Source: Pseudodesulfovibrio piezophilus C1TLV30
Lineage (GTDB): Bacteria > Desulfobacterota > Desulfovibrionia > Desulfovibrionales > Desulfovibrionaceae
Direction: 5' to 3'
DNA length: 32,000 nt
Assembly (NCBI RefSeq): GCF_000341895.1
Contig: NC_020409.1
Coordinates: 3,122,411 to 3,154,410 of the forward strand
Shown: piece after piece, positions 4,922 to 30,844 of the stretch
Layout: the number at the start of each line of letters is the position of its first letter
Position numbering within the stretch: the first letter of the stretch is position 1
Notes under the pieces: generated by a model
What the model saw: the letters and a program-made list of their open reading frames with translations, nothing else
What the model was told of the DNA's origin: nothing
Databases searched by the model: none
Translations under genes and position numbers: made by a program

Positions 4922-5132
4922 AGAAAAAGAAATGGTTTTTAACATACTGTTTAAAATGGTTAAATAAATATATAGAGGGATGTTGGAAAAGGGGGGAGCG
5001 TCTTTGTCTGATAAATGCAGACATGGATAAACCCGGATATCCATGAAACAATCGGGGGGGAGCCTCAAAAGGCTGTATAAAAACAGACGATATTTGGCGT
5101 TTTGAGAATGGTGGAAGTAGAAGGGCACCGCT

Positions 5133-6338
5133 CTATCCGGTGAAGAAGCTGATGAGGGAATTGAGCAAGCCTTGTTTTGAACCCGTCTGTTCATCGGTTT
5201 TTAGTCTCTCCGTTTTTCCCAGACGTTGGTGCTTTTCGAGTTCCTTGCCTAACATTTTGTTTTTGTGAAAGAGGGCGATACAACGCCCGAAATATCGCTC
5301 TGATCTGACCCGTTCCTTGTCCAGCAGGTCAGTGAGTGAGTTAACGAGTTTTTCATTACCGGCCGCTATGCCCCCATCAATGTGGCCTGCCTGGATGTTG
5401 ACCTGTGCTGTCAGTTTGGAAACCATGGATTCGAGGTGGGCTACTCTGCCGAGCATATGCTCGTCCACTGCATGTTGTGCAGTCTGACTCTTGTCTGTAC
5501 CGGCTGCACGGGATGAGTCCTTTGGGTGGTGCGTAATGCCGATATTGTCCAGAACGACTTGTTCAATGACTTCGCGTGAAATGGTTGGAAGTGAATCGGC
5601 ATATCCGTAGACCAGCGCTGCGTTGCACAGGATATTGACAGCCCTTGGCACGCCTCCTGTGTGTTCGTGCAACAGATCCACGGCTCCAGCTTCAAAGATG
5701 GGTTCACTTCCTGCCCCGGCTCGCTGAAGGCGATACTCAATGTACTCACCCAGTTCTTTCCGCGATAAAGGGGCGAGGTGATAGTTGATGGCCACTCGTT
5801 GAGCCAGTTGTTCCAGCCCAGGGCTGCTGATTATGTCCCGTAATTCAGGTTGGCCCGCCAGGATTATCTGGAGCAGCGGCGTTGTCTCGGTTTGCAGGTT
5901 GGAGAGCAGTCGGACTTCTTCCAGTGCCTCATGCGAGAGATTTTGTGCTTCATCAATGATGAGGAGACAGCGGCGACCTTGCCTGAATATGTCAATGAGA
6001 TGCTGGTTCAACAAATCGAGATTGTGCGACTTGTCCTGGCTGACTCCACTGACTTCAAGCTCAATGAGGATGAGCCTGAGGAGTTCCTGGGCATCGACGT
6101 TGGTATTGAAAACGACAGCCACTTCCACATCGGAAGCAATTTGAGTCAACAGGTACTTAAGCAAAGTGGTCTTGCCGGTGCCTATCTCACCCGTGAAGAG
6201 GATAAAGCCGATATTTTCCGTGAAACCGTATTGAAGATATGTCAGCGCCTGCCGGTGCTTGTTACTTTCGTAAAGCACGCCCGGATTCGGAATGATATCG
6301 AATGGTTTGTCGCGAAGACCGTAAAATGATCGAAACAT
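5133..6338 (-). CDS. ExeA-like AAA ATPase, PEP-CTERM locus subfamily (putative secretion ATPase)
   Basis: 401 aa. N-terminus MFRSFYGLRDKPFDIIPNP..., Walker A GEIGTGKTTL, Walker B LLIIDEAQNL. Its position in the exosortase EPS operon fits this family. Confidence 0.8.
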   Translation of the reverse strand: MFRSFYGLRDKPFDIIPNPGVLYESNKHRQALTYLQYGFTENIGFILFTGEIGTGKTTLLKYLLTQIASDVEVAVVFNTNVDAQELLRLILIELEVSGVSQDKSHNLDLLNQHLIDIFRQGRRCLLIIDEAQNLSHEALEEVRLLSNLQTETTPLLQIILAGQPELRDIISSPGLEQLAQRVAINYHLAPLSRKELGEYIEYRLQRAGAGSEPIFEAGAVDLLHEHTGGVPRAVNILCNAALVYGYADSLPTISREVIEQVVLDNIGITHHPKDSSRAAGTDKSQTAQHAVDEHMLGRVAHLESMVSKLTAQVNIQAGHIDGGIAAGNEKLVNSLTDLLDKERVRSERYFGRCIALFHKNKMLGKELEKHQRLGKTERLKTDEQTGSKQGLLNSLISFFTG

Positions 6339-6344
6339 GGGAGT

Positions 6345-7157
6345 CTACTGGCTGAAATGTTTATTTAAAACAACGCCAAGAATGTTGGCCTCACTCAGCA
6401 TTTCAAGGGAAGCCCGGATATCCTCCTGCGAAGTCTTCCCTTCCTCAACAACCAGAATCACCCCGTCCACATAGGTTGAGAAAACAAGGGAGTCCGGCAT
6501 ATCAATGATATGAGGGCAGTCGAAGATGACATAACGATCGGGGTATCGGCTTTTACATTCCTTCACGAGTTGTTGCATTTTGGGCGTACTCAAAAGATCG
6601 GCTGATTCTGTGGTGGCTCGGCAGGCTGGCAGGACAACAAGTTTATCTATCCCCGGATTGACCAGCAGTTCAGGAAGTTCCAGGTGGCCGATGAGATATT
6701 CCTCCAGCCCTCCTTCTTGCCCTCTGCATACACCCATGGTTGTTGCCACACCCGGCCATCGGAGATTCGTATCGACCAGCAGGGCGGTCTGTCGGGCGTC
6801 CCGGGCCAAACTCATGGCGAGGTTGGTCGCGACAATCGTCTTGCCCTCTTTGCGGCGAGGGCTGGTTACCATGATGGAATTAAGCCCATCGGTACGGGTT
6901 ATTTGCAAAATTCTCGCTCGGAGGACGTTGAATGAATCCCTTATATATTGGGCGCTTCCACTGGTAAGTAGGCGATTGCGTTCCAGATGGAGATCGTCGG
7001 CCTCCTGAATCTGGGTCATCCGATAGTTGTGACGAACTGTCGCTTCTTCGGTCTTTTCTTTGTCAGAAGACATGCTGGGGGATGACGGAGAAACCTGCTC
7101 CAAAATGTCGTTTCGCTCGTCTTGAGCCTTTTGTAGTGCCTTGGCTATTTTGCTCAT
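6345..7157 (-). CDS. BY-kinase-like P-loop ATPase (exopolysaccharide / PEP-CTERM locus tyrosine autokinase family)
   Basis: 270 aa. Walker A is SPRRKEGKTIVATNLA, Walker A' is LLVDTNLRWP and Walker B is YVIFDCPH. It lies directly downstream of the Wzz-like gene. Confidence 0.75.
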   Translation of the reverse strand: MSKIAKALQKAQDERNDILEQVSPSSPSMSSDKEKTEEATVRHNYRMTQIQEADDLHLERNRLLTSGSAQYIRDSFNVLRARILQITRTDGLNSIMVTSPRRKEGKTIVATNLAMSLARDARQTALLVDTNLRWPGVATTMGVCRGQEGGLEEYLIGHLELPELLVNPGIDKLVVLPACRATTESADLLSTPKMQQLVKECKSRYPDRYVIFDCPHIIDMPDSLVFSTYVDGVILVVEEGKTSQEDIRASLEMLSEANILGVVLNKHFSQ

Positions 7158-7180
7158 TGGGAGATACCTTTTTTGCTCAG

Positions 7181-8935
7181 CTAAACAATGACCTGAATTT
7201 TGTTCAGGATCTTGAGGGCAATGATGTCCAGCGGGAGCACCAAAAAGTGGACGAGGAGGATTGCGCAGATCACTGCTCCTGCCGAGATGGTGAGGATGAC
7301 AGCCCTTCTGCGGCGTTTCTGTGCCATTTCCTCACTGGTCTGGACATAGGGAATGACGCCGATCACTGGGATTTTGGTCAATAACGCAAGCGAAGTCCTG
7401 TCGTGGATCGAGTGGTCCATAAATTCGGCGACAGAGACAAGGCTGAGGCCGCCTGCTGTTGAGACGATCATGGCGATGATAAGCAGGAGCAGCCTCTTGG
7501 GCTTGTATGGTTTTTCCGGTAGGACAGGAGGTTCTATCAAGGAGAGTTTTTCACCGACATGCTCTTTTTCGAGTTCTTGGGATTGGCGGGCAGAAAGCAC
7601 CTTCTGCATTGTTTCCTGATATTTGACACTGGAGTTGTGATAATCTCGCTGTAAGCTCGTGTACTGCTGCTCAACCTGAGGGCTTTGTTCGATATATGAG
7701 ACATATTGATCATATTTTTTACGAAGCTCTGTCAGCAGGTTTCGTTCATTGCGGATTTCAAGGCTGGTTGCTTTGATTTGCGTTTTGAGGTTGATATACG
7801 CCGGATTTTCCTGGTCCAGATTTTCATTCGATCGCAAGACGCCCTGATTCTTGGACGATACTTGGAGTGAGGCTTTCAGTTCCGCTATTTTCCCTTTGGC
7901 ATTGATGACGTCCGGGTGTTTATTCGTATATTTTTTTTGTAACCGTGCAAGCTTGCGTTCCCATGATCCGAGTTCGGCGTTGATATCTCGTCCCTTGTTT
8001 CTGTGTGTCAATTCAGCCTCAAGCAGGTCGATCTGTCCCTTCAGTTTGATCATGTCCGGGTGTTTTTCCGACCGGCTTGTCTTGTAGGAAAGATACTGGC
8101 TACGCAGAGATTTTAATTCCTCTTCAGGACTCATGATCCGCTTGCCGTCAGCGGAATACGAATAGATGGTCTGATCGACGGTGGCCAGTTGACCTTCCAG
8201 GTAGACCCTGCGATCAGTCAGTGTTTTGATCATTTCCTGTCGGGCATCGATATCTTTTTGAATACGGTCAAGACTTTGCAAGTTCAATTCCATCAATTCC
8301 GGCAGTGAACGATAATTTTTTTCCTTGAAGCTCGCTATTTTCGATTCTGACTTTTGAACATCCTGTCGGAGTTCATCCAGCTGTTTATTCAGGAAGTCGA
8401 GGGTGGTCAGTGCCTTTTCTTCTCGTTGTCTCAGGTTTTGTTCAAGGAAGAGGGAGACGAGGGCGTTCGTTGTTTGTAAAACTTTCTTGGGTGATTTGCC
8501 ATCGAACGAGATGGTAAAGGCGATGGTTGCGGTCGTGGCTCTCCCCGTATTGTTGACAACTTCAGCCTGGATGTTTTCGACTTTGATATTGTCCCGCATT
8601 TTTTGGAGAATCTCTTCAGATGTCAGGCTGTCCTTATATTCGTCATACAAGCCAAAACGATCAATGATAGCCATGAGATTTTGGCGGTTGAAGGCCATTT
8701 GGCTGATTGATTGCAACCGTTCTTCAACATACCCTGTTACAGTAGTTTGAACGAGTTCCTGAGGGACTTCCTGTCCTTCCACCAAAATTGTCGCAGACGA
8801 TGTATAGATTGAAGGCAGCAGGAAGATGATTGCCGCAGTCAGCATGAAAAAAGCGCCTGTTGGAATGGCGAACAGCCAAAATCTCCGCTTGAACGCGTTG
8901 ATGTAAAGTCTGATATCGTTGGTGTTCGTTTCCAT
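7181..8935 (-). CDS. Polysaccharide chain-length determinant (Wzz/GumC-like, PEP-CTERM locus subfamily)
   Basis: 584 aa. It has an N-terminal Wzz-type TM segment (FWLFAIPTGAFFMLTAAIIFLLPSIYTSSATILVE), a long coiled-coil periplasmic region and C-terminal TM helices. Confidence 0.8.
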   Translation of the reverse strand: METNTNDIRLYINAFKRRFWLFAIPTGAFFMLTAAIIFLLPSIYTSSATILVEGQEVPQELVQTTVTGYVEERLQSISQMAFNRQNLMAIIDRFGLYDEYKDSLTSEEILQKMRDNIKVENIQAEVVNNTGRATTATIAFTISFDGKSPKKVLQTTNALVSLFLEQNLRQREEKALTTLDFLNKQLDELRQDVQKSESKIASFKEKNYRSLPELMELNLQSLDRIQKDIDARQEMIKTLTDRRVYLEGQLATVDQTIYSYSADGKRIMSPEEELKSLRSQYLSYKTSRSEKHPDMIKLKGQIDLLEAELTHRNKGRDINAELGSWERKLARLQKKYTNKHPDVINAKGKIAELKASLQVSSKNQGVLRSNENLDQENPAYINLKTQIKATSLEIRNERNLLTELRKKYDQYVSYIEQSPQVEQQYTSLQRDYHNSSVKYQETMQKVLSARQSQELEKEHVGEKLSLIEPPVLPEKPYKPKRLLLLIIAMIVSTAGGLSLVSVAEFMDHSIHDRTSLALLTKIPVIGVIPYVQTSEEMAQKRRRRAVILTISAGAVICAILLVHFLVLPLDIIALKILNKIQVIV

Positions 8936-8946
8936 TGAATCCTCGG

Positions 8947-10158
8947 CTAGAAGAACGTTGGATAGGAGTATTCGAATCGAAGGGCTATCCTGTTCTGTTG
9001 ATCTGTGTTGTGACTGATCCGGTTTTCGATGGATGTGTGTTTGTATTCAAGTCGAATAACTGCATCCTTGGTCCATTTGTATTGTATTGTCGGGCGGAGA
9101 GAAAATGTCTGTTTTTCTGTTTCAGCGACCAGCCCTTCGGTTTCAAGGGTGTAGAATGCTCCTTCGAATGACGCTGTGAGGCGTTCGGTGAATGCATATT
9201 CACTTGATGCCCGCACCCGTGCGCGGGTCGTTGACTCTCCATAAATGGAAGGTGAAATCATTCTGTCCGCTCCCAGAGTGAATTTCCATTTTTCGCGTGC
9301 GTAGGTTCCGGAAATGTCGAAGCTCGGATAGATGTCAGAGGCCGTTTTATCCGTTCCGCCATCCACAGTTGCTATGGAATTGGCGTATCCCAGACCTCCG
9401 TACCCGACGAATTCGAGAAGTTCAGTGGGTCTGTAGCTGAAGCCTCCCATCAAATTGTACACATCCTGCCGGGTATCTCCGTTTGTACGGTCATAGTCAT
9501 AGTGATTGTAGCTTCCCTGAGCCAGGAGGGCGGTTCGTTGGTTGTTCAGGCCGTGACTCCATGTCACCAGACTGCCGCGTTCAGTTGAATCCGGGTTGGT
9601 TTTTCCGGCATATCGTGTCGCAGACAGAGGAATGGTGATGGAGAGTCGGTCTTTTTCCGAAACATTCCAGGATATTCCGGGGGACATTGAGTATCTGCGT
9701 CTCAGGCTTGTGGTTGATTGGGTGCCGGATTGGGCCAGTTCTTCCACAAATGTGTGGTTATAGTCATAACTGGCGTCAAGTTTGAGCTGGAATCGCTCGT
9801 TGAGTTCCTTGCTGCCTTTGAACCAAATGTCATAGTTTTCCCGGTCATATTCGGTGAGATCCTCATAGCGGAAGAGGACCGCCTTGCCGCCTCCCGTGAG
9901 TTCCCAGTCCTCGGCTCTGTATTTCAATTTCATGGAAGGGGTAAGCCTCAGTTCGAGGTCTCCTGTGTCCTTGAAGAGAACATTGTCGTCATATGTCGTT
10001 TGAACCATGATCTTCGGTATGAAAACCGTTTGTTCGGCTCGTGTCGGCGCAGGATAAAGTACGCTCCATACTAGGAGAATGATCCACAGTGTGGTTGAAA
10101 AAGGAATGCGTTGTTTCATCTGGATTCTTTTGGCGCGGGAAGTTCTTGTTGCGGTCAT
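8947..10158 (-). CDS. Outer-membrane beta-barrel protein associated with PEP-CTERM/EPS loci
   Basis: The ORF-track frame runs to 10302 but would then overlap the upstream gene. Plausible starts are ATG 10158 or ATG 10119 (MKQRIPFSTTLWIILLVWSVLYPAPTRA|EQ signal peptide). The sequence shows an alternating beta-strand pattern, is rich in Y/G/S/T/D, and ends in the OMP-type terminus ...RFEYSYPTFF. Confidence 0.7.
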   Translation of the reverse strand: MTATRTSRAKRIQMKQRIPFSTTLWIILLVWSVLYPAPTRAEQTVFIPKIMVQTTYDDNVLFKDTGDLELRLTPSMKLKYRAEDWELTGGGKAVLFRYEDLTEYDRENYDIWFKGSKELNERFQLKLDASYDYNHTFVEELAQSGTQSTTSLRRRYSMSPGISWNVSEKDRLSITIPLSATRYAGKTNPDSTERGSLVTWSHGLNNQRTALLAQGSYNHYDYDRTNGDTRQDVYNLMGGFSYRPTELLEFVGYGGLGYANSIATVDGGTDKTASDIYPSFDISGTYAREKWKFTLGADRMISPSIYGESTTRARVRASSEYAFTERLTASFEGAFYTLETEGLVAETEKQTFSLRPTIQYKWTKDAVIRLEYKHTSIENRISHNTDQQNRIALRFEYSYPTFF

Positions 10159-10162
10159 TGTC

Positions 10163-10747
10163 TTAGGGGATAAGGACCGTATCTCCCGGCAGGAGGGGAA
10201 TATTTTGTTCCAGACCATCTCCTGAGACCGCTTTGACATAATTGAAGGGAAGATATGTTTGTTTTCCCTCTTTTCCGATGCGGACGACGAGAATGTCGTC
10301 ACTTTCCGCGTATGGTGTCATGCCGCCAGCCAAGGCAAGGGCTTGCAAAACAGTGATCTGCCCACTCATCAGATAGACGCCAGGCCGGTTGACCTTGCCC
10401 ACAACGTAGACTTGAGGACTCCCCAATTGTTGCAGCATGATCGTCACCGGTGCATCGGATACATATTCCTTTATACGCTTTTCGAATTCCTTGCGCAATG
10501 CCTCGACTGTTTTCCCGGCTGCTTTCATGTCGCCGACAAGAGGGAAGGAGACCATCCCATCGGGGCGGATGATGACATTGGGGCGGGTCAGAGCTTCATC
10601 TCCCCAAACGGAGACTTCCAAAATGTCCCCAGCTCCGAGCCGAAAATCCGACATTGATGCAGCGTGCGCCGGAGGACACAGAAAAAGAATAGCAAGGGTG
10701 AGTGGAGCGATCAAAGCAAAGGCAAATAAAAAAAAGGGACGTTTCAC
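10163..10747 (-). CDS. Polysaccharide export protein (Wza/EpsE-like, Poly_export + SLBB)
   Basis: 194 aa with a GTG start and a GAGGAAA SD. It has a signal peptide, then FRLGAGDILEVSVWGDEALT...VIIRPDGMVSFPLVGDMKAAGKTVEAL...GQITVLQALALAGG...LLPGDTVLIP. Confidence 0.85.
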   Translation of the reverse strand: MKRPFFLFAFALIAPLTLAILFLCPPAHAASMSDFRLGAGDILEVSVWGDEALTRPNVIIRPDGMVSFPLVGDMKAAGKTVEALRKEFEKRIKEYVSDAPVTIMLQQLGSPQVYVVGKVNRPGVYLMSGQITVLQALALAGGMTPYAESDDILVVRIGKEGKQTYLPFNYVKAVSGDGLEQNIPLLPGDTVLIP

Positions 10748-10760: not shown

Positions 10761-11315
10761 CTACAGTGTCGGATTCATTTTCGTCAGTTGCATGGATGCC
10801 AGTCCATAATCTTTAAGCAGCTTTTCATATGCTTTTTGCCCTTCATCGGATGATCCTGTAATCAGCGCACCCAGTTGTAATTCTTCCCCCATGACCTCAA
10901 TGCGTCTGGCCACGCATTGAAAGCGGATCGGGTCCATGTCGTCGGTGAAGGCAAATATGATTTCGAATCTCAATCCTACAGGATAGTCGGTTATGACACG
11001 GCCACACAGCTTTTTCCCGGAGCAGACAATACGGATGCCGATAGGGGAAATGTCCTTGAGCAAGGCTGGTTGATAGACGACCGATGCACCATTTTCCTCT
11101 TCAATATAAATGATCGCCGGGACGTTGACTTCAACACGTTGAAAAGAACGCCTCTCTTCCTCGGTTGCACATGGAGACTGCTGCGTATGAATATATTCTT
11201 CGACAATTGCTTCAAGCAGAGCTTCAGGAGGCGTACCGAGTTCTTTGGCGATCGTCTCCAGGTCAAGGGCCAGTTCGCCGCTGATGGAATACCGAGGGAA
11301 AACATCTTCAGACAT
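10761..11315 (-). CDS. PilZ-domain protein with a ribbon-helix-helix-like N-terminus (putative c-di-GMP receptor/regulator), first gene of the EPS export operon
   Basis: 184 aa. The PilZ motifs are RSFQR (RxxxR) and DISPIG (DxSxxG). The N-terminus RYSISGELALDLETIAKELGTPPEALLEAIVEEYI has a strand-helix-helix pattern. Its stop codon is 13 nt from the Wza-like start. It is a paralogue of 13177..13704. Confidence 0.7.
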   Translation of the reverse strand: MSEDVFPRYSISGELALDLETIAKELGTPPEALLEAIVEEYIHTQQSPCATEEERRSFQRVEVNVPAIIYIEEENGASVVYQPALLKDISPIGIRIVCSGKKLCGRVITDYPVGLRFEIIFAFTDDMDPIRFQCVARRIEVMGEELQLGALITGSSDEGQKAYEKLLKDYGLASMQLTKMNPTL

Positions 11316-11342: not shown

Positions 11343-11552
11343 AAAGAAAAATAGTTAAGCATATGCTCACCCTTGCTCCGACAAAATACATCTAAGAGAC
11401 CATAAACAATTGCATTCTGGAAAAATCGGACAGGTTGACCGGGAGTATCTCCCGTACTGCTCAGGAAAAAACACCATTTTTACCCCTATGACTTCATTCC
11501 CTCTTCCAAATATTAATTTACCGTGCGATAGAGAAGTCCGATTTCGTTACGT

Positions 11553-11625
11553 TACCAAGCCAAACTGGGTGTGAGCCCAGGACGGAAAGCCACGGGTCTC
11601 TTGGAGATAGCCGGGTTGCCAATTG
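11553..11625 (+). promoter_or_regulatory. Candidate c-di-GMP-I (GEMM) riboswitch aptamer in the prsR leader
   Basis: The sequence reads G-CC-AAA-[CUGGGU-GUGA-GCCCAG]-GAC-GG-AAAGCC-[second hairpin with UCUC/GAGA core]-UAGCCGGGUUGCC. It lines up element by element with the V. cholerae Vc2 aptamer as I recall it: GGGCAAA-[CCAUUC-GAAA-GAGUGG]-GACGCAAAGCC ... UAGCGGGGUUACC. Both have a 6-bp stem capped by a GNRA tetraloop. There is an apparent compensatory change (G..C in Vc2, C60..G85 here) at the pair closing the AAA/GAC internal loop. Confidence 0.6.
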
Positions 11626-11666: not shown

Positions 11667-13106
11667 ATGGCTCGAATTCTGCTGATAGACGATGCACAGG
11701 ACTTTTGTCTGATTTTTGCGACAATGCTCAAGCGCCTTGGGTTTGATTGCATTACTTCGACGAGTCTTGAGGCCGGCCTTCAGGAACTGGAGAAAAACCC
11801 TTTTGATCTCGTTTTTCTCGATGTTTATCTCGGTGCGCACAGCGGGCTTGACCATATCGCCGGTGTCATGAACTCACCGGGCAATCCTGATGTCATCATC
11901 ATCTCGGCCAGCGGCAGCGGAAAAAACGCCGAAGAAGCCATTCAACTCGGCTCATGGGATTTTCTCGTCAAACCCGTGAGTTTTACTGATCTCGAAAAGT
12001 GTATTTCCCGATGTCTCAAGCATAGGGAAGCCAAAAGTCGATTCATTGCCGAATCCACATTCCATCGGGGACCAATTATTGGAGGCAGTCCTCAACTGCT
12101 TCGGGCCATCCAGTGGGTCGGCATCGTTGCCCGGTCCAAGAATAACGTCCTTATTCTTGGCGAAACAGGGACCGGCAAGGAGCTGTTTGCCCGAGCTGTT
12201 CACGAGAATAGTGAGCGGAGCAGTCAATCCTTTACGGTTGTCGATTGTACTAATCTGCCGACGACTTTGGCGCAAAGTATCCTGTTCGGTCATGAGAAAG
12301 GGACTTTTACCGATGCGAAAGAACGGCGGGAGGGGCTTTTCAAACAGGCGGATGGTGGAACCATCTTTTTAGATGAAATTGCGGATCTCGATATGACTAT
12401 CCAGAAGGCCCTTTTACGGGTTTTGCAAGATCATACTTTCCGGCCGCTGAGTTCCAGGAATGAGGTGAAAAGTGATTTTCGCCTCGTGGCCGCGACGAAC
12501 AGGGACCTGCCTCAAATGGTCCATGACGGGACTTTTCGTCAGGATCTCTATTATCGCCTCAAATCATGTATTATCAATCTGCCGCCTTTGAGAGAAAGGG
12601 TAGATGATATCGCTCCCCTGGCTATTCATTATATGAAAAAGATATGCAAGGAGCAGGGGATTCCCAAAAAGAGGTTTTCAGATGATTATCTCCAGGCCTT
12701 GAGGGAATATCACTGGGCAGGGAATGTCCGGGAGTTGATCAATACCGTCAATCATTCCATTTCAAATTCCTTTGATGCAAAGACACTCCATTCCTATCAT
12801 CTTTCAAGGGAATTGCGAGTCTGCCTGGTCAAAAACAATGTTGAAAATGCAGACCAGAAACTGACTACTGATTTCATTCAGCCACTGTCATCGCTCCCTG
12901 ACGATCACTTCAGTCAGGAGGAATTACCGACATTCAAGGAAGTTCGAAAAAAGGTCGTCAGTCAATTGGAGGCGGAATATCTTTTGGAATTGGTCAACCG
13001 GACTGCCGGTGATATCAAAGCAGCTTGCAAGGTGGCAGGATTGTCGAGGGCACGTCTCTACGAACTTCTGCAAAAGCATGAGATCGATTACAAGCACGCA
13101 AGTTAG
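11667..13106 (+). CDS. prsR: Sigma-54-dependent response regulator (NtrC family; PrsR-like PEP-CTERM-locus activator)
   Basis: 479 aa. It has a receiver domain (LLIDD...DLVFLDVYL), an AAA+ sigma-54 interaction domain (GETGTGKELFARAVH, GTIFLDEI, GTFTDA loop, NVRELIN) and a C-terminal Fis-type HTH (AACKVAGLSRARLYELLQKH). Confidence 0.85.
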   Translation: MARILLIDDAQDFCLIFATMLKRLGFDCITSTSLEAGLQELEKNPFDLVFLDVYLGAHSGLDHIAGVMNSPGNPDVIIISASGSGKNAEEAIQLGSWDFLVKPVSFTDLEKCISRCLKHREAKSRFIAESTFHRGPIIGGSPQLLRAIQWVGIVARSKNNVLILGETGTGKELFARAVHENSERSSQSFTVVDCTNLPTTLAQSILFGHEKGTFTDAKERREGLFKQADGGTIFLDEIADLDMTIQKALLRVLQDHTFRPLSSRNEVKSDFRLVAATNRDLPQMVHDGTFRQDLYYRLKSCIINLPPLRERVDDIAPLAIHYMKKICKEQGIPKKRFSDDYLQALREYHWAGNVRELINTVNHSISNSFDAKTLHSYHLSRELRVCLVKNNVENADQKLTTDFIQPLSSLPDDHFSQEELPTFKEVRKKVVSQLEAEYLLELVNRTAGDIKAACKVAGLSRARLYELLQKHEIDYKHAS

Positions 13107-13176: not shown

Positions 13177-13704
13177 TTATGGTGAAAATTGTAAAATCTC
13201 TTTGAGGACATCCAGGCTGTCTCCGGTTGATTTGATGAACGCACATCCCAATTCGGAGACATCTTTTTCAAAGACGTGTTTGACCTCACAAGTGAAACAA
13301 ACCGGGTACTGTCTTTCTGGAACCGTAAAAATGATCTCAACGTGATGTCCCACACCAATGATTCTCATCAGGTCTTTCGGCGCGTAATCGCACTGTAACT
13401 TGAGCCCTCCCACAGAGACATCGCGCACTTTCCCCGGTAAAATGGCTGTTCCGACCTCTTCACTGATAGGTCTGGCAACAGCAGAGAGGTTGACAACAGT
13501 GCGGTCGTGTGCCCGCCGGTTGCTGGCCTTGACACCGAGATAATTTTCAATCGCCTTGACTATCAGTTCATTGACATCCCGGTTTTCCAACGTAGCCCTG
13601 TCTTGAAGTGCTTCGTTAATCTCTTCGACCACCTGAAAGCAGATTGTTACTGTATGGCCCACATTTTTTCTCATTTTCAAATGCTCAAGTAGGAAGAGAG
13701 GCAT
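13177..13704 (-). CDS. PilZ-domain protein with a ribbon-helix-helix-like N-terminus (paralogue of 10761..11315)
   Basis: 175 aa; the alternative start ATG 13674 gives MRKNVGHTVTICF.... The N-terminus HTVTICFQVVEEINEALQDRATLENRDVNELIVKAIENYL looks like a CopG/RHH fold. The PilZ motifs are RAHDR (RxxxR) and DVSVGG (DxSxxG). The segment EIIFTVPERQYPVCFTCEV matches EIIFAFTDDMDPIRFQCVA in the paralogue. Confidence 0.7.
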   Translation of the reverse strand: MPLFLLEHLKMRKNVGHTVTICFQVVEEINEALQDRATLENRDVNELIVKAIENYLGVKASNRRAHDRTVVNLSAVARPISEEVGTAILPGKVRDVSVGGLKLQCDYAPKDLMRIIGVGHHVEIIFTVPERQYPVCFTCEVKHVFEKDVSELGCAFIKSTGDSLDVLKEILQFSP

Positions 13705-13909: not shown

Positions 13910-15583
13910 ATGAGAGTTGATAATTGGAAGATGACAATGGGCAGTTTTCGTCTTTGCCAATGCGAAAGAATGCCAGCTTCAACTGAGTTGAAGTGTATAA
14001 TCAAAAGGTTGCAGGAGTCTCCCGAGGCCTGTGTCGGCTTGATGGCTGGAGGGCGTCTCAAAGGAATTGTGACCATTGAGACTCTTATCGCGAACCTTGA
14101 TTCCCATTCTGGGAGGTTGGAAGGCTCGTCTGCCCTTGAGTGTGCCTCAACGAGTTTTGTGATGACCAGTGGGGATGTTTTCTTCACCGATTTTCTGTAC
14201 GAAAACTCTTCGAAATCATATGACAATATTATTTTAACAAGTTCCCATGGACAAATCAGTCTTGTTGCCAAGGATACTTTTCGTCAAATACTTACCTTTA
14301 AAAACCGCCGGATACGTGAAGTCCTTCCTGTGACTTCCGGGGTCCCGGCTCTTAATGAGAAAGAGAGTTGTCTCAAGGCTCTGGAGCTTTTAAGTCATGA
14401 GGAACACCCGCATGTTGTCAGTTTGGGAAATGATGGCCCAACCGGAGTTGTGACGCGGCACGATATCTCCAGAGCCATTGAAATGCGACAAAACCTTTGG
14501 GATATACGACTTGTTGATGTGGCTCAGAGCAATGTGACTGTCTTGAGGGAGGATATTTCGGCAGAAGAAGCTCTTTTTCAATTGGAGGGAAATCCAAACA
14601 GGCTGATCATTTGCGAGGATTCCGATGGCGGCGTTCGTTCCGTGGTTGATATTATGCAGCTCCGTCGTGCCCTGATCGGTTTGCTCAAGCCGAAAAAATA
14701 TGAAATTGCGTACCAGGGAGTTGCCCAGAGACAGCTCAGTGATATCCTTATTGAACGGGTCATGAGTGATACCATGGGTATAGGAGTGGTGGCTCTGACA
14801 CCCGATCTAGAGATTCAATACAGTAACAGGACAGCGAAAAAACTCTTGGGCCTGAGTTCTGTTTCTCTGAGTAGAAAAAGCGCGTATTCTCTTTCTCATG
14901 ACATCCCGCTTCTGGAAAATGTCGTGCATGCTGTGGGCATGTTGGACCCCGTTTCCAATCCGGTTGTCGATTTGAGCAACAGGACGGATTTTCCCTCGAA
15001 TTATCAGACGAAATTGACAGGGGTATGGAAGAATAATGATCCGAGTGGTTTTATTGTTACCATCCAAAATTCCACTGATGTTCGACTCGCTGAAGCAAAG
15101 CTGCGAAAGCTGGCGTATTACGATGCCTTGACCGGGTTGCCGAATAGGACATTGCTTTTTGAGAGATTGAATATGGAGATCAGGAAAAGCCGCAGGTATA
15201 ATGAAGAGTTTGCAGTGGTGTTTGTTGATTTGAACGGGTTCAAGGGAATCAATGATCGCTATGGTCATCGTTACGGAGATCAGCTTCTTATCAAGGTTGC
15301 CAACCGATTTTCCAATGTCCTGCGTGAAACCGATACGGTTGCCAGGCTCGGTGGCGATGAATTCCTTTTTATTCTCCCTGGCGCATCCTTCATGGAAACA
15401 GCATGGGTTGTCTCCAAGAAGATACTCGCCGTGCTGGATGAGCCGATTGTTTTGGAAGAGGTGACAGTCTCCATCGATGCCAGTTTCGGGACAGCGTACT
15501 TTCCGGAAAATGGGCTGACCCCCGAGGAACTTATCGATTTTGCCGATCAGGAAATGTACGAATCGAAAAGACTTGGACTCTAA
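13910..15583 (+). CDS. CBS-CBS-PAS-GGDEF diguanylate cyclase
   Basis: 557 aa. It contains CBS-like modules (LKGIVTIETLIANL, PTGVVTRHDISRAIEM, VRSVVDIMQLRRAL), a PAS-like segment (MGIGVVALTPDLEIQYSNRTAKKLLG) and a GGDEF domain (YYDALTGLPNR ... RLGGDEFLFIL). An RxxD I-site (RETD) sits 5 residues before GGDEF. The exact start codon is uncertain. Confidence 0.85.
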   Translation: MRVDNWKMTMGSFRLCQCERMPASTELKCIIKRLQESPEACVGLMAGGRLKGIVTIETLIANLDSHSGRLEGSSALECASTSFVMTSGDVFFTDFLYENSSKSYDNIILTSSHGQISLVAKDTFRQILTFKNRRIREVLPVTSGVPALNEKESCLKALELLSHEEHPHVVSLGNDGPTGVVTRHDISRAIEMRQNLWDIRLVDVAQSNVTVLREDISAEEALFQLEGNPNRLIICEDSDGGVRSVVDIMQLRRALIGLLKPKKYEIAYQGVAQRQLSDILIERVMSDTMGIGVVALTPDLEIQYSNRTAKKLLGLSSVSLSRKSAYSLSHDIPLLENVVHAVGMLDPVSNPVVDLSNRTDFPSNYQTKLTGVWKNNDPSGFIVTIQNSTDVRLAEAKLRKLAYYDALTGLPNRTLLFERLNMEIRKSRRYNEEFAVVFVDLNGFKGINDRYGHRYGDQLLIKVANRFSNVLRETDTVARLGGDEFLFILPGASFMETAWVVSKKILAVLDEPIVLEEVTVSIDASFGTAYFPENGLTPEELIDFADQEMYESKRLGL

Positions 15584-18049: not shown

Positions 18050-20347
18050 ATGAAAAGTCTGAGGATTCGAGTTCTGTTGGGAACTTCATTGATTCTTGTT
18101 GCCTTTTTATTTCTGCTGGGATCGTATGTTATTGTTTCCCAGCGGCAGGAGCTTATAAATACTCTTGAAGATCATGGCCAGCGGATGGCCTCTCTGACTG
18201 CTCGTTCCTGCTCGGAATATATTCAGCGATTCAGCTATTTCCTGATGGAGGATCAAGCCCTCTCCGTGGAGCAGTCCCCGGATGTCGCCTTTTGTGAAAT
18301 TTATGATGTGGAGGGCAAATCCCTTCTCCAGTCCGGTAATATCATTTCCAAGGATCATACTCGCAAGAATTCTCCGTCGTATGGGGGGAATCTGCTCCTG
18401 GTCTCTCAACCCATAATGGCAGGAACCACCCGGATCGGCCGGGTTGATATCGGTCTCAAACTTGAGAGTATTGATCAGGCTATTTCTGAAAAGACGATTC
18501 GTATGGTCATGCTATTCATTCTGCTTGCCCTGTGTTTGATTACCGTTTTGAGCGGTTTTTTCCAGCAACTCTGCATCAAACCCATTCAGGATCTGACTCA
18601 ATACACCCGCAAGGTTGCTCAAGGGGATTTTGTTGTGTTCGATGCTGGGGGCAGAGATGATGAAATTGGCTATCTCGCCCAGAATTTCAATGAAATGAGT
18701 ATGTCTCTCAAGGAATTGTACGGCGGTTTGGAATCCAAGGTTCGGGAGCATACCAACGAGTTGGAAAAAACAAATATGGAATTGCAGGACATGGTTTCAC
18801 ATGCAGAGCGCATGGCTCGGAAAGCGGAAGAAGGAACCCGAGCAAAATCTCAGTTCCTTGCAGCAATGAGCCATGAAATACGAACTCCCATGAATTCCGT
18901 CCTTGGCATGGCCGAAGCCTTGGCAGAAACGGCATTGACCGGTGAACAGAAAAGTTACTTGAATGTGATTCAGGGATCAGGCACCACATTGCTCGGTCTG
19001 ATTGATGATATTCTTGATCTGAGTAAAATTGAGAGTGGGGATGTGGTTGTGGAATCGATTCCTTTTCAGATTGAAGATGTCCTGGCTCATGTTTTCAGCG
19101 TGATGTCTTATGCCGGACATGCAAAGGCTCTTGATTTGGATTACATGATTGCGCCGGAAATCCCCGGTATGGTGCTTGGCGATTCCTATCGATTGCAGCA
19201 GATTCTCATGAATCTGGTCAGCAATGGGATCAAATTCACTCATGCGGGGGCGGTTCATGTTGAAGTTGATGTCCTGTCTCGAAAAGGGACAGGGTTTGGT
19301 TCCTCGGTGGTCCTGCAATTCCTGGTGCGGGATAGCGGGATAGGGATTGTCCCCGAGGCTCTTGATTCGATTTTCGATAAATTTACCCAGGCGGATTCCT
19401 CCACAACCCGTAACTATGGTGGTTCCGGTCTTGGTTTGGCCATCTGCAAATCACTGTGTGAAATGATGGGGGGAAAAATAGCTATAGAAAGTGAGGTGGG
19501 AGTGGGCACCAATGTCCTCTTTAACCTGCCATTTGATGTTGCGCGGGAAACAGCCCCTGGTGCATCTCCTCTTTCCGGCAAACATCTCTTGTTGGTTGAT
19601 GACCGGGATCGGCTTCAGGAACGGCTTGCAGCCCGTATCAGGGGGTGGGGTGGATCGATTGTCATCCGGGAGGATTTGGAGAGCGCAGTGACAGCTGTGG
19701 AAAGCGAAGGGAGCGGGGAAACGTATGACGCGGTTGTCGTCAATACCCCCTTGGGGGGCAAATCCTGGCGAAACGTGGCAGCAGAAATGGTCCAAAGAGG
19801 ACTTGATCCGCAACGGATCATCCTGCTGACGTCAGAGCCTGCCGAGGATGCCGGAGATTTTTACTCCATCGGCGGTATCCTGACAAAACCACCTGGCATG
19901 GAACGGCTCAAGGCCACAATGGAAAAGATGGCAGTCAGAAATTTGCAACCGCAAAAGACGCTGCGATCGTTGGAGATTCTCCTTGTTGAAGACAATGAAG
20001 CCAATGTCATGCTTATTGAAGTGTATCTCAAGGACACGGCGCATACCTTGTCTGTTGCGCATGACGGGCAGGAAGGGTTTTCCTTGTATCGGGAAAAGCG
20101 ATTCGATATTGTCTTTATGGATATCGAAATGCCCGTCCTTGACGGCTATGGCAGCACTCGGATGATTCGGCAATGGGAAAGGGAGAATCGCAAGTCACCA
20201 GTACGTATCATTGCCTTGACTGCTCATGCCCTGAACGAAGTCCGAGAAAAGGCACTCGATGCCGGATGCAATTCCCATTTGACGAAACCTGTTTCCAAGG
20301 AAGCTTTTTTGCGGGCTTTGCGAATCGAAATTGGCCGATTTCACTAA
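18050..20347 (+). CDS. Hybrid sensor histidine kinase (TM-periplasmic-TM-HAMP-HisKA-HATPase-pseudoreceiver-receiver)
   Basis: 765 aa. It has two TM segments flanking a loop of about 130 aa, a HAMP domain, the H-box SHEIRTPMNSV and the G-box GSGLGLAICK. The first REC-like domain has N at the phospho-acceptor position (AVVVNTPL). The second REC domain is canonical (DIVFMDIEMP...LTKP). Confidence 0.85.
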   Translation: MKSLRIRVLLGTSLILVAFLFLLGSYVIVSQRQELINTLEDHGQRMASLTARSCSEYIQRFSYFLMEDQALSVEQSPDVAFCEIYDVEGKSLLQSGNIISKDHTRKNSPSYGGNLLLVSQPIMAGTTRIGRVDIGLKLESIDQAISEKTIRMVMLFILLALCLITVLSGFFQQLCIKPIQDLTQYTRKVAQGDFVVFDAGGRDDEIGYLAQNFNEMSMSLKELYGGLESKVREHTNELEKTNMELQDMVSHAERMARKAEEGTRAKSQFLAAMSHEIRTPMNSVLGMAEALAETALTGEQKSYLNVIQGSGTTLLGLIDDILDLSKIESGDVVVESIPFQIEDVLAHVFSVMSYAGHAKALDLDYMIAPEIPGMVLGDSYRLQQILMNLVSNGIKFTHAGAVHVEVDVLSRKGTGFGSSVVLQFLVRDSGIGIVPEALDSIFDKFTQADSSTTRNYGGSGLGLAICKSLCEMMGGKIAIESEVGVGTNVLFNLPFDVARETAPGASPLSGKHLLLVDDRDRLQERLAARIRGWGGSIVIREDLESAVTAVESEGSGETYDAVVVNTPLGGKSWRNVAAEMVQRGLDPQRIILLTSEPAEDAGDFYSIGGILTKPPGMERLKATMEKMAVRNLQPQKTLRSLEILLVEDNEANVMLIEVYLKDTAHTLSVAHDGQEGFSLYREKRFDIVFMDIEMPVLDGYGSTRMIRQWERENRKSPVRIIALTAHALNEVREKALDAGCNSHLTKPVSKEAFLRALRIEIGRFH

Positions 20348-20366
20348 TGCGTACTGGATTGTTTTC

Positions 20367-20744
20367 ATGACAAGACTGCCTTTTACAGATCTCGTGATTG
20401 ATTTGATCAAAAGCATCCCGGCAGGGAAGGTCGCGACGTATGGAGGAATTGCCCGTATGGCCGGAAAGAGCCGTGGAGCAAGACAGGTTGCTTATATTCT
20501 CCACTCTTTTTCAGCCAAGGAAGGGTTGCCATGGCATCGTGTGGTCAACCGGGCAGGATGTATATCCTTGCGGCCAGGGTTTGGGTATGAGGAACAGAAA
20601 GATCGGCTCATCAGTGAAGGTGTCGTGTTTGACGAAAAGGACACACTTGATTTTGGACGATTCCTCTGGATCCCGGGGCCTGAAGAGTGCCAGGAAACCA
20701 CGCCCCCACGCGACATAACATCCTGTGGGGGCAATGATTCCTGA
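20367..20744 (+). CDS. Alkyltransferase-like (ATL) protein, MGMT DNA-binding domain family without the catalytic Cys
   Basis: The start is ATG 20367 (MTRLPFTDLV...). The fold matches the MGMT C-terminal domain (IPAGKVATYGGIARMAG...RQVAY). The active-site motif reads PWHRV instead of PCHRV; the Trp codon is at 20532-20534. Confidence 0.7.
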   Translation: MTRLPFTDLVIDLIKSIPAGKVATYGGIARMAGKSRGARQVAYILHSFSAKEGLPWHRVVNRAGCISLRPGFGYEEQKDRLISEGVVFDEKDTLDFGRFLWIPGPEECQETTPPRDITSCGGNDS

Positions 20745-20752
20745 CTCGGGAG

Positions 20753-21400
20753 TTACAGTTTTTTGAGTGCCTGTACGACCTCGGTCGGGTCCAGGCGTTT
20801 GGTGTAATCCACCTCGGCAAAGTGGTAGGCCACGGTGCCATCCTGTCGGATCACATATGTTGCCGGGATCGGGAGAGTGTATGAAGCATCTCCGTTGGAT
20901 TTCTCCAGATCAATTCCGAATCCCTTGTAGATTGCTTTGAGTTCTTCTCCGACCGTGAAGACGAGGCCAAATGATGTGGCAACGACATTACCATCGTCAT
21001 GAAGCACATCAAATGTCAGTGCATTCTTTTCAGCCGTGGATAGAGAGTTGTCTTCAGTTTCAGGACTGATTGCCGCAAGGCTCGCTCCCAGTTCATGAAT
21101 TTCCGGCAAGACCTTTTGCAGAGCTACCAGCTCCAGATTGCAGTAAGGTCACCAGCCGCCTCGGTAAAAACTGAGAACAAGTGGTCCCTGTTGCAGATAG
21201 GCAGCGAGGTTTCGTTCCTGATTCAGATGATTTTTCACTGAGAATTGAGGAGCTTTTTCTCCATCCGCCAATGCCGAGCCTTCTATGCCGGAATTTCGCA
21301 GGTCTTTCTCAGCTTGCTGCATTACTGCTTGTGCTGTTTCAGGGATTCGTTTCTTGTTCTGCTTGAGAGTCTGGGCCAATTGTTCTGTCAAAGTGGACAT
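20753..21400 (-). CDS. Peroxiredoxin-like (AhpC/TSA, Prx-like) selenoprotein; in-frame TGA (21151-21149) read as selenocysteine in a UxxC redox motif
   Basis: ORF-track entries 21149..21400 and 20753..21109 are in the same frame and are separated by a single TGA. The joined translation reads ...PLVLSFYRGGW-U-PYCNLELVALQKVLPEIHELGASLAAISPE... This is the FYRGxWCPYCN thioredoxin-fold motif with TGA at the first Cys. AGGAG lies 6 nt before ATG 21400. A hairpin with GGU in its loop follows the TGA. Confidence 0.7.
21117..21142 (-). promoter_or_regulatory. Candidate bacterial SECIS hairpin downstream of the in-frame UGA
   Basis: The mRNA reads UGA CCUUAC UGCA AUCUG GAGCU GGU AGCUC UGCA. It has a 5-bp upper stem (GAGCU/AGCUC) with a GGU apical loop 24-26 nt from the U of UGA, a 4-bp lower stem (UGCA/UGCA) and a 5-nt bulge. 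Confidence 0.5.
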
Positions 21401-21597
21401 CGCAATCTCCTGTGTGGGTTGTGTGTCTTGCTCCGTTACTATGAGGCAGGGACCTCAGCATAATCCCTGTAGTGCCTCCGAGTACGCTACAAGAGCCTAG
21501 TTGCATGTGCAACTATATTCTACGGTTCGTTATATTGAATTATTGTATTGAAAGCATATGCTTTTCAAATAGTTATAATTTTATAAGATTCATATTT

Positions 21598-27701: not shown

Positions 27702-28799
27702 TTAATTGCGCTTGGCTAATTCGGATAATTCCAGCGAAGTCAGTGGACGTTCCAGTTGCCAGGCCAGTTTTCTTACCGCTGAAACAAGCTGAGGGAGCTC
27801 CCGTTCGGGATATTCAAGCCCGTTCTTATCAAGTGCGTGGGCAACTGCCGCCCGCCCGCTTTTGCCGCCAACCGCGAGAGTGCGATCTGCGCCGATGGTT
27901 TTCGGTGAAAACGGCTCGAAGAGGTCGGGAGATTTGCTGAGTGCGTGAGCGTGGATGCCTGATTCGCATGAAAAGATATCCTTACCTGCAATGGCTTTCG
28001 TTCGAGGAATCGGGACCCCGGCAGCTTCAGCGACTTGATGGCAGAGTTGACGAATCCCTTGAGTTTGATACCCATGACTTTCCTCCTTGATGGTAAAATA
28101 CGCAGCAACTTCTTCAGTGGCGGCTATACCGGATCGTTCCCCGATTCCCAGAACACTGACATCTGCGTAATCTGCTCCTGAGGCCAAGGCTGTGATAGCA
28201 TTTGCCGTGGCCATGCCAAAATCGTTATGGCAATGGACCGCCACATCGATTTCAAGATTCTCTTTGAAAGATGTAATCATTTTTTTTGTCTCAGAGGGAG
28301 TCAGCAAACCGAGAGAATCTGACAGTCGGACCCTTGAAGCCCCCATATCCTGTGCCAGCATCGCAGCAGTCAGGGAAAACTCCGGGTCGGCACGGGAGAT
28401 ATCTTCAAGGCCGACAGAAACATATTCCACGCCGAGAAGGACGGCGGATAAAACTGTTCCGGCCAATCGCTCAAGTAATCCTTCGCGGTTGGTGTGCAAT
28501 CTGTTCTTGAGATGAAGATCGGAAACAGGGACACCAATATTGATCCTGTCCACATTCAATGCCGCTGCGGTGCGGATGTCTCCGTCCCGGCATGGGGTCC
28601 ATGCGCTTATCCGGGTTGCCCCGGCGAAGGGGCGAACACGGCGAATCAGTTCTTCAAGTCCATTTTGACCTACCCAGCCCAGTTCTAATTCTTCCACACC
28701 AAGTTCAAGGAGTCCTCGTATGATGGCTTCCTTTTCTTTCATGCTGAAATAAGCGCCGAAAAGCTGAGCGCCTTCTCTGAGTGTCGTATCAATCAACAT
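27702..28799 (-). CDS. nifV: Homocitrate synthase-like protein (NifV; HMGL-like/pyruvate carboxyltransferase fold)
   Basis: The preferred start is ATG 28799 (MLIDTTLREGAQ...), with GGGAGA 6 nt upstream; the ORF-track start 28880 adds 27 poorly supported residues. The metal-site motif is VHCHNDFGMATAN. There is no LeuA-type C-terminal regulatory domain. The gene is divergent from nifH. Confidence 0.7.
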   Translation of the reverse strand: MLIDTTLREGAQLFGAYFSMKEKEAIIRGLLELGVEELELGWVGQNGLEELIRRVRPFAGATRISAWTPCRDGDIRTAAALNVDRINIGVPVSDLHLKNRLHTNREGLLERLAGTVLSAVLLGVEYVSVGLEDISRADPEFSLTAAMLAQDMGASRVRLSDSLGLLTPSETKKMITSFKENLEIDVAVHCHNDFGMATANAITALASGADYADVSVLGIGERSGIAATEEVAAYFTIKEESHGYQTQGIRQLCHQVAEAAGVPIPRTKAIAGKDIFSCESGIHAHALSKSPDLFEPFSPKTIGADRTLAVGGKSGRAAVAHALDKNGLEYPERELPQLVSAVRKLAWQLERPLTSLELSELAKRN

Positions 28800-28936
28800 G
28801 TTGTTTCTCCCAATGTCATGTGCTGTTCCATGCGTATGGAGAAGCATGAACGATGCCAAAGCAGTCTGTTGATTTAACATTCTAAAATTACGTGTTTTTT
28901 TTAAAAAAGCGTTGCGGGTGTTGTTGCTGACATTTT

Positions 28937-28992
28937 TGTAGGTTCCTACAACTTCGTCTGCGAAGTTCGTTGCTTCCTACACTTTTCGTAGG
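28937..28992. promoter_or_regulatory. Cluster of inverted repeats with TGTAGG/CCTACA half-sites upstream of the nifH promoter (candidate activator binding sites)
   Basis: Three elements: TGTAGG-tt-CCTACA (28937-28950), AACTTCG-tctg-CGAAGTT (28950-28967) and CCTAC-acttttc-GTAGG (28976-28992). They lie 70-125 bp upstream of the -24 element. Confidence 0.4.
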
Positions 28993-29021
28993 TGAGTTGT
29001 CTCTGTGTGGTTTTATGATAA

Positions 29022-29951
<930 letters not shown>

Positions 29952-30116
29952 ATCTCATTTCGCATCCCTCCCGGCGTCTTCCGACGGTCGAGACTCGACG
30001 AATTTCGTGGATGAACGAAAGGTCTGCTCTTAACACCGATGCCTTTGACCCGGGAGGAATAAAAGAGAAAATGCAACCAAAAGTACATAATTCAAGTAAG
30101 ATAGGAGAGCGTTAAA

Positions 30117-30470
30117 ATGATGATCATGGTAAGAGCGATTGTACGGCCTGAAAAAGCGGATGATGTCTTGGCTGCCCTGATGGACAATGGTTTTCCGGCA
30201 GTCACCAAATACTCCGTGGCTGGTCGCGGCAAGCAGCGCGGCATCAAGATCGGTGAAGTCACCTATGATGAAATCCCCAAGACCATGCTCATGAGCGTTG
30301 TCAACGCCGCAGACAAGGACTTCGTCATCACGACAATCATGAACGCTGCGCGCTCCGGCACCAAAGGTGCTTTCGGTGATGGTAAGATTTTTGTTTCCGA
30401 AGTCGAGGATGTCTACACCATCAGTTCCGGCGTCAACGATACTGCCGCCGCTTCCGAGGAGGCAGCATAA
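30117..30470 (+). CDS. nifI1: P-II family nitrogenase regulator NifI1
   Basis: 117 aa with a P-II fold (MVRAIVRPEK...AVTKYSVAGRGKQRG...GDGKIFVSEVEDVYTI). It sits between nifH and nifD. Confidence 0.85.
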   Translation: MMIMVRAIVRPEKADDVLAALMDNGFPAVTKYSVAGRGKQRGIKIGEVTYDEIPKTMLMSVVNAADKDFVITTIMNAARSGTKGAFGDGKIFVSEVEDVYTISSGVNDTAAASEEAA

Positions 30471-30844
30471 TGAAGGAAATCATCGCAGTTGTGCGCATGG
30501 ACATGATGAACCGCACCAAGGCTGCCTTGACTGAGGTTGGCGTGGATGCCTTCTTTGCTCACGAAGCACAGGGCCGAGGCAAGGGGTTTATCAACTCAAG
30601 TGTCCTGGAAGGCGCTGAGAGCGGATACGAAGAAGCCGCAGCAGTCCTGGGAGAAAAAGGGAAATTGTATCCAAAGCGCATGTTGACGGCAGTAGTCACT
30701 GACGATGTCGTGGAAGAGGTGGTGGAAGCAATCACCTCTGTCAACCAGACCGGGAAACCCGGCGATGGCAAGATTTTCGTCCTGCCTATTGGGGACGCAG
30801 CCCGCGTCAGAACCTCTGAAACCGGCGAAAAGGCGATCGCCTAA
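30470..30844 (+). CDS. nifI2: P-II family nitrogenase regulator NifI2
   Basis: 124 aa with a P-II fold and an extended T-loop (HEAQGRGKGFINSSVLEGAESGYEEAAAVLGEKGKLYPKR...GDGKIFVLPIGDAARVRT). Its start overlaps the nifI1 stop codon (TAATG). Confidence 0.85.
   Translation: MKEIIAVVRMDMMNRTKAALTEVGVDAFFAHEAQGRGKGFINSSVLEGAESGYEEAAAVLGEKGKLYPKRMLTAVVTDDVVEEVVEAITSVNQTGKPGDGKIFVLPIGDAARVRTSETGEKAIA

Follow-up and report, generated by a model that had tools for sequence, protein, structure and literature searches.

A probable Prx-like UxxC selenoprotein gene of Pseudodesulfovibrio piezophilus C1TLV30, divided by gene callers at an in-frame UGA

Reading frame and homologues of the divided gene

We analysed a 32,000-nucleotide (nt) stretch of the Pseudodesulfovibrio piezophilus C1TLV30 genome (contig NC_020409.1, forward-strand positions 3,122,411 to 3,154,410), hereafter the window. 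It contains, on the minus strand at positions 21400–20753, a gene for a peroxiredoxin-like (Prx-like) protein that is interrupted by TGA. Direct translation of this strand gave a single frame of 215 sense codons followed by TAA. Its sole internal stop was the TGA at 21151–21149, in the context LSFYRGGW-TGA-PYCNLELVALQ, and no other lesion was found in the gene. The list of open reading frames (ORFs) divided this frame into a piece of 83 amino acids (aa) (21149–21400, ending at the TGA) and a piece of 118 aa (20753–21109, with a TTG start); the 13 codons separating them are open. The initial annotation, made from the sequence alone, had described two fragments in one frame, split only by the TGA, and a full product of 215 aa. 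Direct translation agreed with both statements. We consider it very probable that the region forms a single intact gene whose product is a Prx-like thioredoxin-fold oxidoreductase of 215 residues, with a selenocysteine (Sec) in the centre Sec84-Pro-Tyr-Cys87. The features of the gene are as follows; each line ends with the evidence used.

20753–21400, minus strand: probable selenoprotein coding sequence containing Sec84, with TAA at 20755–20753 (single frame, Pfam AhpC-TSA, full-length homologues)
21149–21151, minus strand: UGA codon, probably Sec84, the first residue of U-P-Y-C (invariant Cys column; TGA in metagenome contig L121 and in at least 120 genomic loci)
21140–21142, minus strand: UGC codon, Cys87, the putative resolving partner in UxxC (alignment to PDB 2cx3 and 5epf)
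21110–21151, minus strand: bacterial selenocysteine insertion sequence (SECIS) element (fold, pair counts, synonymous constraint, comparison with the bacterial SECIS model)
21398–21411, minus strand: ribosome-binding site (RBS) AGGAG (21411–21407), a 6-nt spacer and ATG (21400–21398) (sequence inspection; homologues align from residue 1)
21539–21568, minus strand: possible sigma-70-type promoter, TTGAAA-18-AATAAT, weakly indicated (consensus scan)

The consensus scan found one sigma-70 site where 1.5 were expected from shuffles, which is not significant.

When U was replaced by C, the product matched the Pfam domains AhpC-TSA (PF00578; 1.3e-27, 96.6 bits against a cutoff of 26) and Redoxin (PF08534; 9.9e-16). 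A search of 5.8 billion proteins returned 6079 homologues. The full-length ones, of about 215–218 aa, were named 'peroxiredoxin-like family protein' and showed 55–61% identity from residue 1 to the end. Among 58 aligned full-length homologues, the sequence F-Y-R-G-x-W-C-P-Y-C was invariant except at x. The TGA of the window aligned with the first Cys of this motif, and both C84 and C87 were present in 58 of 58. The nearest TGA-bearing homologue, P0001, is encoded on a metagenome contig (L121, 301–978, plus strand) and shares 60% identity with the window protein. Its codon at the position of Sec84 is also TGA, and a stretch of 36 nt that begins with this TGA is identical to the window sequence. 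The two proteins are 49% identical in the N-terminal part and 68% identical in the C-terminal part. Codons of conserved residues were nucleotide-identical between the two genes in 11 of 11 cases after the TGA versus 38 of 117 in the rest of the gene (Fisher p = 1.2e-5). The product predicted by the Joint Genome Institute (JGI) prints Trp at the TGA codon of L121; P0001 therefore stands in the protein database at full length with a wrong residue.

To see how often TGA occurs at this codon, one genome per species was scanned with the back-translated motif YRGxW-TGA-PYC, in which TGA was kept fixed (pattern TAYMGNGGNNNNTGGTGACCNTAYTGY). At least 120 loci matched the motif together with the TGA, and all 120 that were listed encode homologues. 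In the listed loci the frame stays open for 107–204 codons past the TGA, except in a few that end with the retrieved DNA. About 30 full-length orthologues with 35–56% identity were among the matches listed, including members from Geobacteraceae, Desulfocapsaceae, Desulfoluna and Malonomonas; the TGA orthologues in Geobacteraceae metagenome-assembled genomes were 38–45% identical. The hosts of the listed TGA loci belong to Desulfobacterota, Acidobacteriota, Gemmatimonadota, Chloroflexota, Actinomycetota, Proteobacteria and other groups. The initial annotation had placed the TGA on the first redox Cys of FYRGxWCPYCN, with conserved sequence intact on either side, and had proposed a check of homologues for Cys or Sec in this column. 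The alignments bore out the placement and the intact flanks, and the check gave Cys in all 58 full-length homologues and TGA in L121 and in the genomic loci.

These data bear on two explanations that do without Sec. The first is a sequencing or assembly error that made a spurious TGA. We regard its probability as negligible: L121, an independent metagenome contig, agrees with the window over 36 nt from the TGA, and at least 120 independent assemblies have TGA at this codon. The second is a pseudogene, in which a Cys codon (TGC or TGT) changed to TGA and inactivated a Cys-type gene, so that the two ORFs are decaying remnants. One third-position change is enough to turn TGY into TGA, the pieces are labelled 'fragment' in public annotation, and Cys forms far outnumber Sec forms among the homologues. 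On the other side, L121 and the genomic loci also carry TGA here, with open frames beyond it. Further decay, which the initial annotation had named as one of two opposing outcomes, was not found; the 215 codons contain no lesion besides the TGA. The hairpin described below also speaks against a pseudogene.

A SECIS-type hairpin in the coding sequence

Positions in the element are counted from the U of the UGA. The RNA downstream of the UGA can form a hairpin in which nt 2–7 pair with nt 37–42 as a lower stem. The upper stem of 7 bp, UGGAGCU/AGCUCUG, is formed by nt 17–23 (21135–21129) and nt 27–33 (21125–21119), and it is closed by the apical loop GGU at nt 24–26 (21128–21126). The 45-nt element starting at the UGA had a folding energy of −15.6 kcal/mol (z = −3.0). 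The published model of the bacterial SECIS (bSECIS) has a loop of 3–9 nt, a stem of 4–16 bp and a spacing of 16–37 nt between UGA and loop (PMC13188914, Fig. 2A). It also has a G at loop position 1 or 2, with G or U as the usual next base, and a minimum free energy of −7.5 kcal/mol or lower (PMC13188914). The window element has a 3-nt loop, a 7-bp stem, the loop sequence G-G-U and a distance of 20 nt from UGA to loop, all within these limits. Its energy is within the limit for the 45-nt element; the 26-nt core alone gave −6.7 kcal/mol. With the bSECIS consensus and the SECIS of E. coli fdhF it shares the position directly after the UGA, a small G-G/U loop, a spacing of 16–37 nt and a folding energy of no more than −7.5 kcal/mol; similarity in primary sequence to the fdhF element is neither required nor claimed.

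We then compared 32 Sec orthologues, taken from genomes, with 48 Cys orthologues that were retrieved by the same pattern with TGY substituted for TGA. An uninterrupted stem of 6 bp or more was present in 88% of the Sec orthologues (n = 32) versus 29% of the Cys orthologues (n = 48). The loop started at nt 23–25 in 24 of the 32 Sec orthologues, with the sequence GGA, GGU, GGC or UGGAU in the Sec set, whereas stem positions and loops were scattered in the Cys set. The folding energy of nt 10–51 was −11.6 kcal/mol in Sec and −8.2 kcal/mol in Cys orthologues (p = 9e-5) at equal GC content. Because the stem is coded by E-L-x-A-L, we compared the synonymous codons used for its residues:

Glu as GAG: 27/27 in Sec orthologues, 9/18 in Cys orthologues
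Leu as CTG: 27/30 in Sec orthologues, 17/46 in Cys orthologues
Ala as GCT: 24/29 in Sec orthologues, 4/34 in Cys orthologues (p = 9e-9)

The helix was also kept in Sec orthologues that have other residues there, with compensating bases, as in L057 (CCACGCU-GGU-AGCGUGG), L107 (GCAGUUG-GGU-CAACUGC) and L073 (CCUUC-AGGU-GAAGG). In the alignment of the 32 sequences, 77% of the cells were paired versus 32–48% with slid partners, and 6 of the 9 stem pairs showed double changes. The observed pair values were reached by 1–8 of 500 shuffles on four of five measures and by 24 of 500 on the fifth. Among the matches listed, a strict form of the bSECIS model was satisfied by 89 of 119 Sec forms versus 13 of 120 Cys forms. 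These results indicated that the SECIS structure is selected at the RNA level, beyond the constraint on the protein. It is strongly supported that conservation of the hairpin at the nucleotide level is confined to the TGA-bearing orthologues. Contrasting the synonymous codons of Sec and Cys forms offers a clean and reusable way to test computationally for a SECIS located within a coding sequence.

The TGA-bearing proteins listed (L001–L120) form subfamilies with two classes of hairpin after the UGA. In the first class, 41 of the listed sequences, including the subfamily of the window protein, have a GGN-type loop starting at nt 23–25. In the second class, 34 listed sequences have a loop that begins at nt 20 and reads AGUUG or AGUUA; these proteins are mostly shorter and carry WUPYCRRQLA.

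A pseudogene is difficult to reconcile with this hairpin, which is nucleotide-identical between the window and a homologue that differs at 40% of its residues, and with a synonymous-site constraint that is specific to the TGA forms. We consider a pseudogene very unlikely.

Another explanation is that the UGA is translated without Sec, being read as Cys or Trp by near-cognate suppression or by Cys-tRNA(Sec), which would give a CxxC or WxxC protein. Low-level suppression of UGA occurs in bacteria, and the JGI product of the L121 homologue prints W. This W is an artefact of the gene caller, as the DNA of L121 reads TGA. TGA is the normal stop of 8 of the 26 long ORFs in the window; thus, the recoding is local and the genetic code is standard. 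Near-cognate suppression also needs no conserved SECIS-type hairpin at the canonical distance, and the host is among the published Sec users (PMC5029168). Read-through as Cys or Trp is therefore highly improbable in our view. An alternative genetic code was rejected on the same count of TGA stops.

Taken together, the recurrent TGA, the SECIS-type hairpin and the codon constraint support the proposal of the initial annotation that the in-frame TGA encodes Sec in a Prx-like selenoprotein.

Active site, family assignment and host

For the structure we used the AlphaFold model of P0002, a Cys homologue with 61% identity to the window protein (pLDDT 90.7). The model shows a thioredoxin/peroxiredoxin fold in which the first Cys directly precedes the helix 85–103. 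The nearest structures were BcpB, AhpE and ResA (5epf, 3hjp, 1xvw, 2h19), with TM-scores of 0.75–0.87 when normalised to the target and about 0.6 when normalised to the query. Residues 4–37 of the model form a high-confidence N-terminal hairpin of two helices that is not covered by the nearest Prx, BCP and ResA structures.

The peroxidatic Cys of BCP in 2cx3 and 5epf aligned with Cys87 ('SPVC' and 'TPGC' versus 'CPYC'). In this alignment the conserved Thr/Ser of PxxxT/SxxC corresponds to Sec84, and Arg80 stands where the motif has Pro (BCP 'FPAAFSPVC' versus 'YRGGWUPYC'). Neither the Pro nor the Thr/Ser of the canonical Prx motif PxxxT/SxxC was found in the window protein; because this motif is absent, it is not a canonical Prx. 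The initial annotation had called the TGA codon the catalytic Cys position. This holds for a thioredoxin-type CxxC centre, but not for a canonical Prx, whose peroxidatic Cys aligns with C87. Several NCBIfam models stayed below their cutoffs: BCP NF006960 (44 versus 140 bits), ResA NF002854 (37 versus 170), the SelL-related NF040769 (32 versus 120) and PrxU NF040737 (21 versus 270).

PrxU of Eubacterium acidaminophilum (PxxxTxxU) has the same AhpC/TSA fold, a Sec in the turn before helix 1 and a UGA with a SECIS. In PrxU, however, Sec occupies the peroxidatic position, whereas the window protein keeps Cys87 there, has Sec in place of the Thr three residues earlier and has Arg80 in place of the Pro of PxxxT. 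BCP/PrxQ, AhpE and ResA share the fold, and their active-site helix is placed as in the model of the Cys homologue; they differ in having 19–27% identity, in not being selenoproteins and in lacking the N-terminal helical hairpin 4–37. The Cys-type homologues, such as P0005 of Maridesulfovibrio frigidus and those of many cyanobacteria, are alike in identity (55–61%), in length and in FYRGGW-x-PYCN, but they have TGY for the UGA and lack the constrained hairpin codons GAG-CUG-GNN-GCU-CUG. Two Cys-type paralogues were also seen in tandem on the plus strand of metagenome contig L146, at 4214–4240 and 4872–4898, about 650 nt apart.

The Prx-like UxxC selenoprotein family showed no essential difference from the window protein when compared through its published descriptions. 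Both have the PF00578 domain and UxxC instead of the TxxU motif of Sec-containing Prx, with Sec at the first Cys of abundant Cys homologues and a SECIS hairpin directly downstream. The family is present in selenoprotein-rich Deltaproteobacteria, and the TGA orthologues of the window gene occur in Geobacteraceae and Desulfocapsaceae. The subfamily of the window protein has about 215 aa and an N-terminal two-helix extension, while the wider UxxC set has shorter subfamilies and another SECIS loop. In the homology search with a Geobacter-type orthologue, the family reference of G. sulfurreducens, WP_010940744.1, was not listed. Judged from its sequence, the window gene belongs to the Prx-like UxxC family by domain, UxxC motif, Sec/Cys pair, TGA homologues and SECIS.

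Prx-like thiol:disulfide oxidoreductase selenoproteins were reportedly predicted by Kryukov and Gladyshev in 2004. The family has thus long been described, and the gene leaves knowledge of Sec decoding and of the family unchanged. Prx-like UxxC selenoproteins have been reported in Geobacter, Syntrophus and Desulfotalea (PMC1794560), which documents the statement of the initial annotation that such proteins are known in Deltaproteobacteria. The Sargasso Sea data contained 22 Sec sequences of a 'Prx-like protein' (PMC1088965), and the GOS data contained 225 sequences of 'Prx-like 1, pfam00578, UxxC' (PMC2398784). In a survey of 5200 genomes, the Prx-like family was found in 28 organisms (PMC5029168).

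The following mechanism is proposed by analogy. As established for other bacterial selenoproteins, the hairpin would be bound by SelB together with its Sec-tRNA(Sec), and Sec would be inserted at the UGA without termination. Sec84 would be placed at the N-terminus of the active-site helix, and its selenolate may attack a disulfide or possibly a hydroperoxide. From CxxC thioredoxin-fold chemistry and the family assignment, Sec84 would then be expected to form a selenenylsulfide with Cys87, which a thioredoxin-type reductant could reduce again. It is unlikely, if conceivable, that the subfamily of about 215 residues, with its two-helix extension, its Sec at the Prx Thr position and its Cys at the peroxidatic one, differs in mechanism from a generic thiol:disulfide oxidoreductase and works through a Sec-Cys dyad, for instance as a peroxidase or as a lipid-hydroperoxide reductase.

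The active site also bears on the possibility that the UGA terminates translation, leaving an 83-residue peptide, and that, in line with the annotation, the C-terminal 118–127 residues are made as a product of their own. Possible starts are present downstream, among them a TTG at 21109, and databases hold products of 118 and 127 aa. Such C-terminal products would lack Sec84; the 118-aa product would also lack Cys87 and helix 1, and would therefore have no redox centre. No RBS was evident ahead of the internal starts, and the open frame between the two pieces is kept across orthologues, which favours one polypeptide. Separate translation has, in our judgement, very little likelihood, and even taken jointly the rival explanations remain improbable.

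The selenoprotein reading requires that the host can insert Sec. Peng et al. (2016) defined Sec-utilising organisms by SelD, SelA and SelB (PMC5029168), and Desulfovibrio piezophilus C1TLV30 is listed among them with 7 known selenoproteins, not itemised per gene (PMC5029168, Table S2). In the 32-kb window ARAGORN found no tRNA, and hence no selC there; Pfam analysis of the 27 window ORFs gave neither sel genes nor a further candidate selenoprotein. Selenium, peroxiredoxin and pseudogenes are not mentioned in the paper on the genome and proteome of D. piezophilus, and literature on piezophilus combined with selenocysteine or NiFeSe yielded nothing specific.

Several points weigh against reading the gene as a selenoprotein. 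The single-sequence z-score of the hairpin depends on the boundaries chosen, with −0.33 obtained from the 26-nt core, −3.0 from 45 nt and −1.08 from 73 nt; because shorter and longer fold windows gave weak z-scores, we relied on the comparative evidence. No Rfam SECIS match was obtained for 20700–21500, either at the gathering threshold or with E up to 10, a null result that carries no information, since all bacterial SECIS models stayed below threshold. The stem lies within coding sequence (E-L-x-A-L), so its conservation is partly protein-driven; the Cys-form control addresses this but was drawn from metagenomes, while the Sec set came from genomes. The presence of selA, selB, selC and selD in the host rests on one published table (PMC5029168). 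A 2026 review grades the Prx-like UxxC family as 'predicted with high confidence' (PMC13188914). Finally, the orthologues (32 Sec, 48 Cys) lacked a conserved neighbour gene that might hint at a substrate or reductant. The recurrent neighbours were antisense ORF artefacts and, occasionally, TetR or LysR regulators; since neighbourhood clustering gave no conserved partner gene, there is no functional clue from operons.

Database records and surrounding genes

Database entries P0011 and P0042 of P. piezophilus, one of 127 aa and one of 118 aa, cover only the C-terminal part, with 99% identity, and the pieces are labelled 'fragment' or 'redoxin domain-containing protein'. The Geobacter-type members P0154 and P0203 are likewise C-terminal fragments derived from NCBI. 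Public databases hold only C-terminal fragments because gene callers stop at the UGA. The correct record would show a single selenoprotein of 215 residues, with the UGA marked as a translation exception. P. piezophilus is a piezophilic sulfate reducer from the deep sea, and the gene would extend its set of antioxidant and thiol-redox proteins by one redox selenoprotein. The species is cultivable, and could thus permit the first experimental validation of a family that has so far been predicted.

The selenoprotein gene stands alone in the window, convergent with an MGMT-like gene and divergent from a TetR-RND efflux operon. The convergent gene, encoding an MGMT-family DNA-binding domain (PF01035), lies at 20331–20744 on the plus strand, and the gap between the two stops is 8 nt. 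A terminator-like hairpin on the plus strand at 20735–20755 overlaps the ends of both genes.

Two further parts of the window were recorded. The start of a nitrogen-fixation cluster occupies 27702–30844, with a homocitrate-synthase-like gene at 27702–28880 (minus strand), nifH at 29037–29951 (plus strand) and two P-II genes at 30117–30470 and 30470–30844 (both plus strand). The other part is rich in functions related to cyclic di-GMP (c-di-GMP). It includes an exosortase/exopolysaccharide (EPS) export cluster at 1148–10747 (minus strand), PilZ genes at 10761–11315 and 13177–13704 (both minus strand) and a GGDEF+CBS gene at 13910–15583 (plus strand). A c-di-GMP-I-GGC riboswitch (Rfam RF03167) was identified at 11550–11624 on the plus strand (63.3 bits, E = 6.8e-13). 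It precedes, by 43 nt, an ORF for a response-regulator/sigma-54 activator at 11667–13106 (plus strand). A c-di-GMP riboswitch ahead of a gene for an enhancer-binding protein may merit separate attention.

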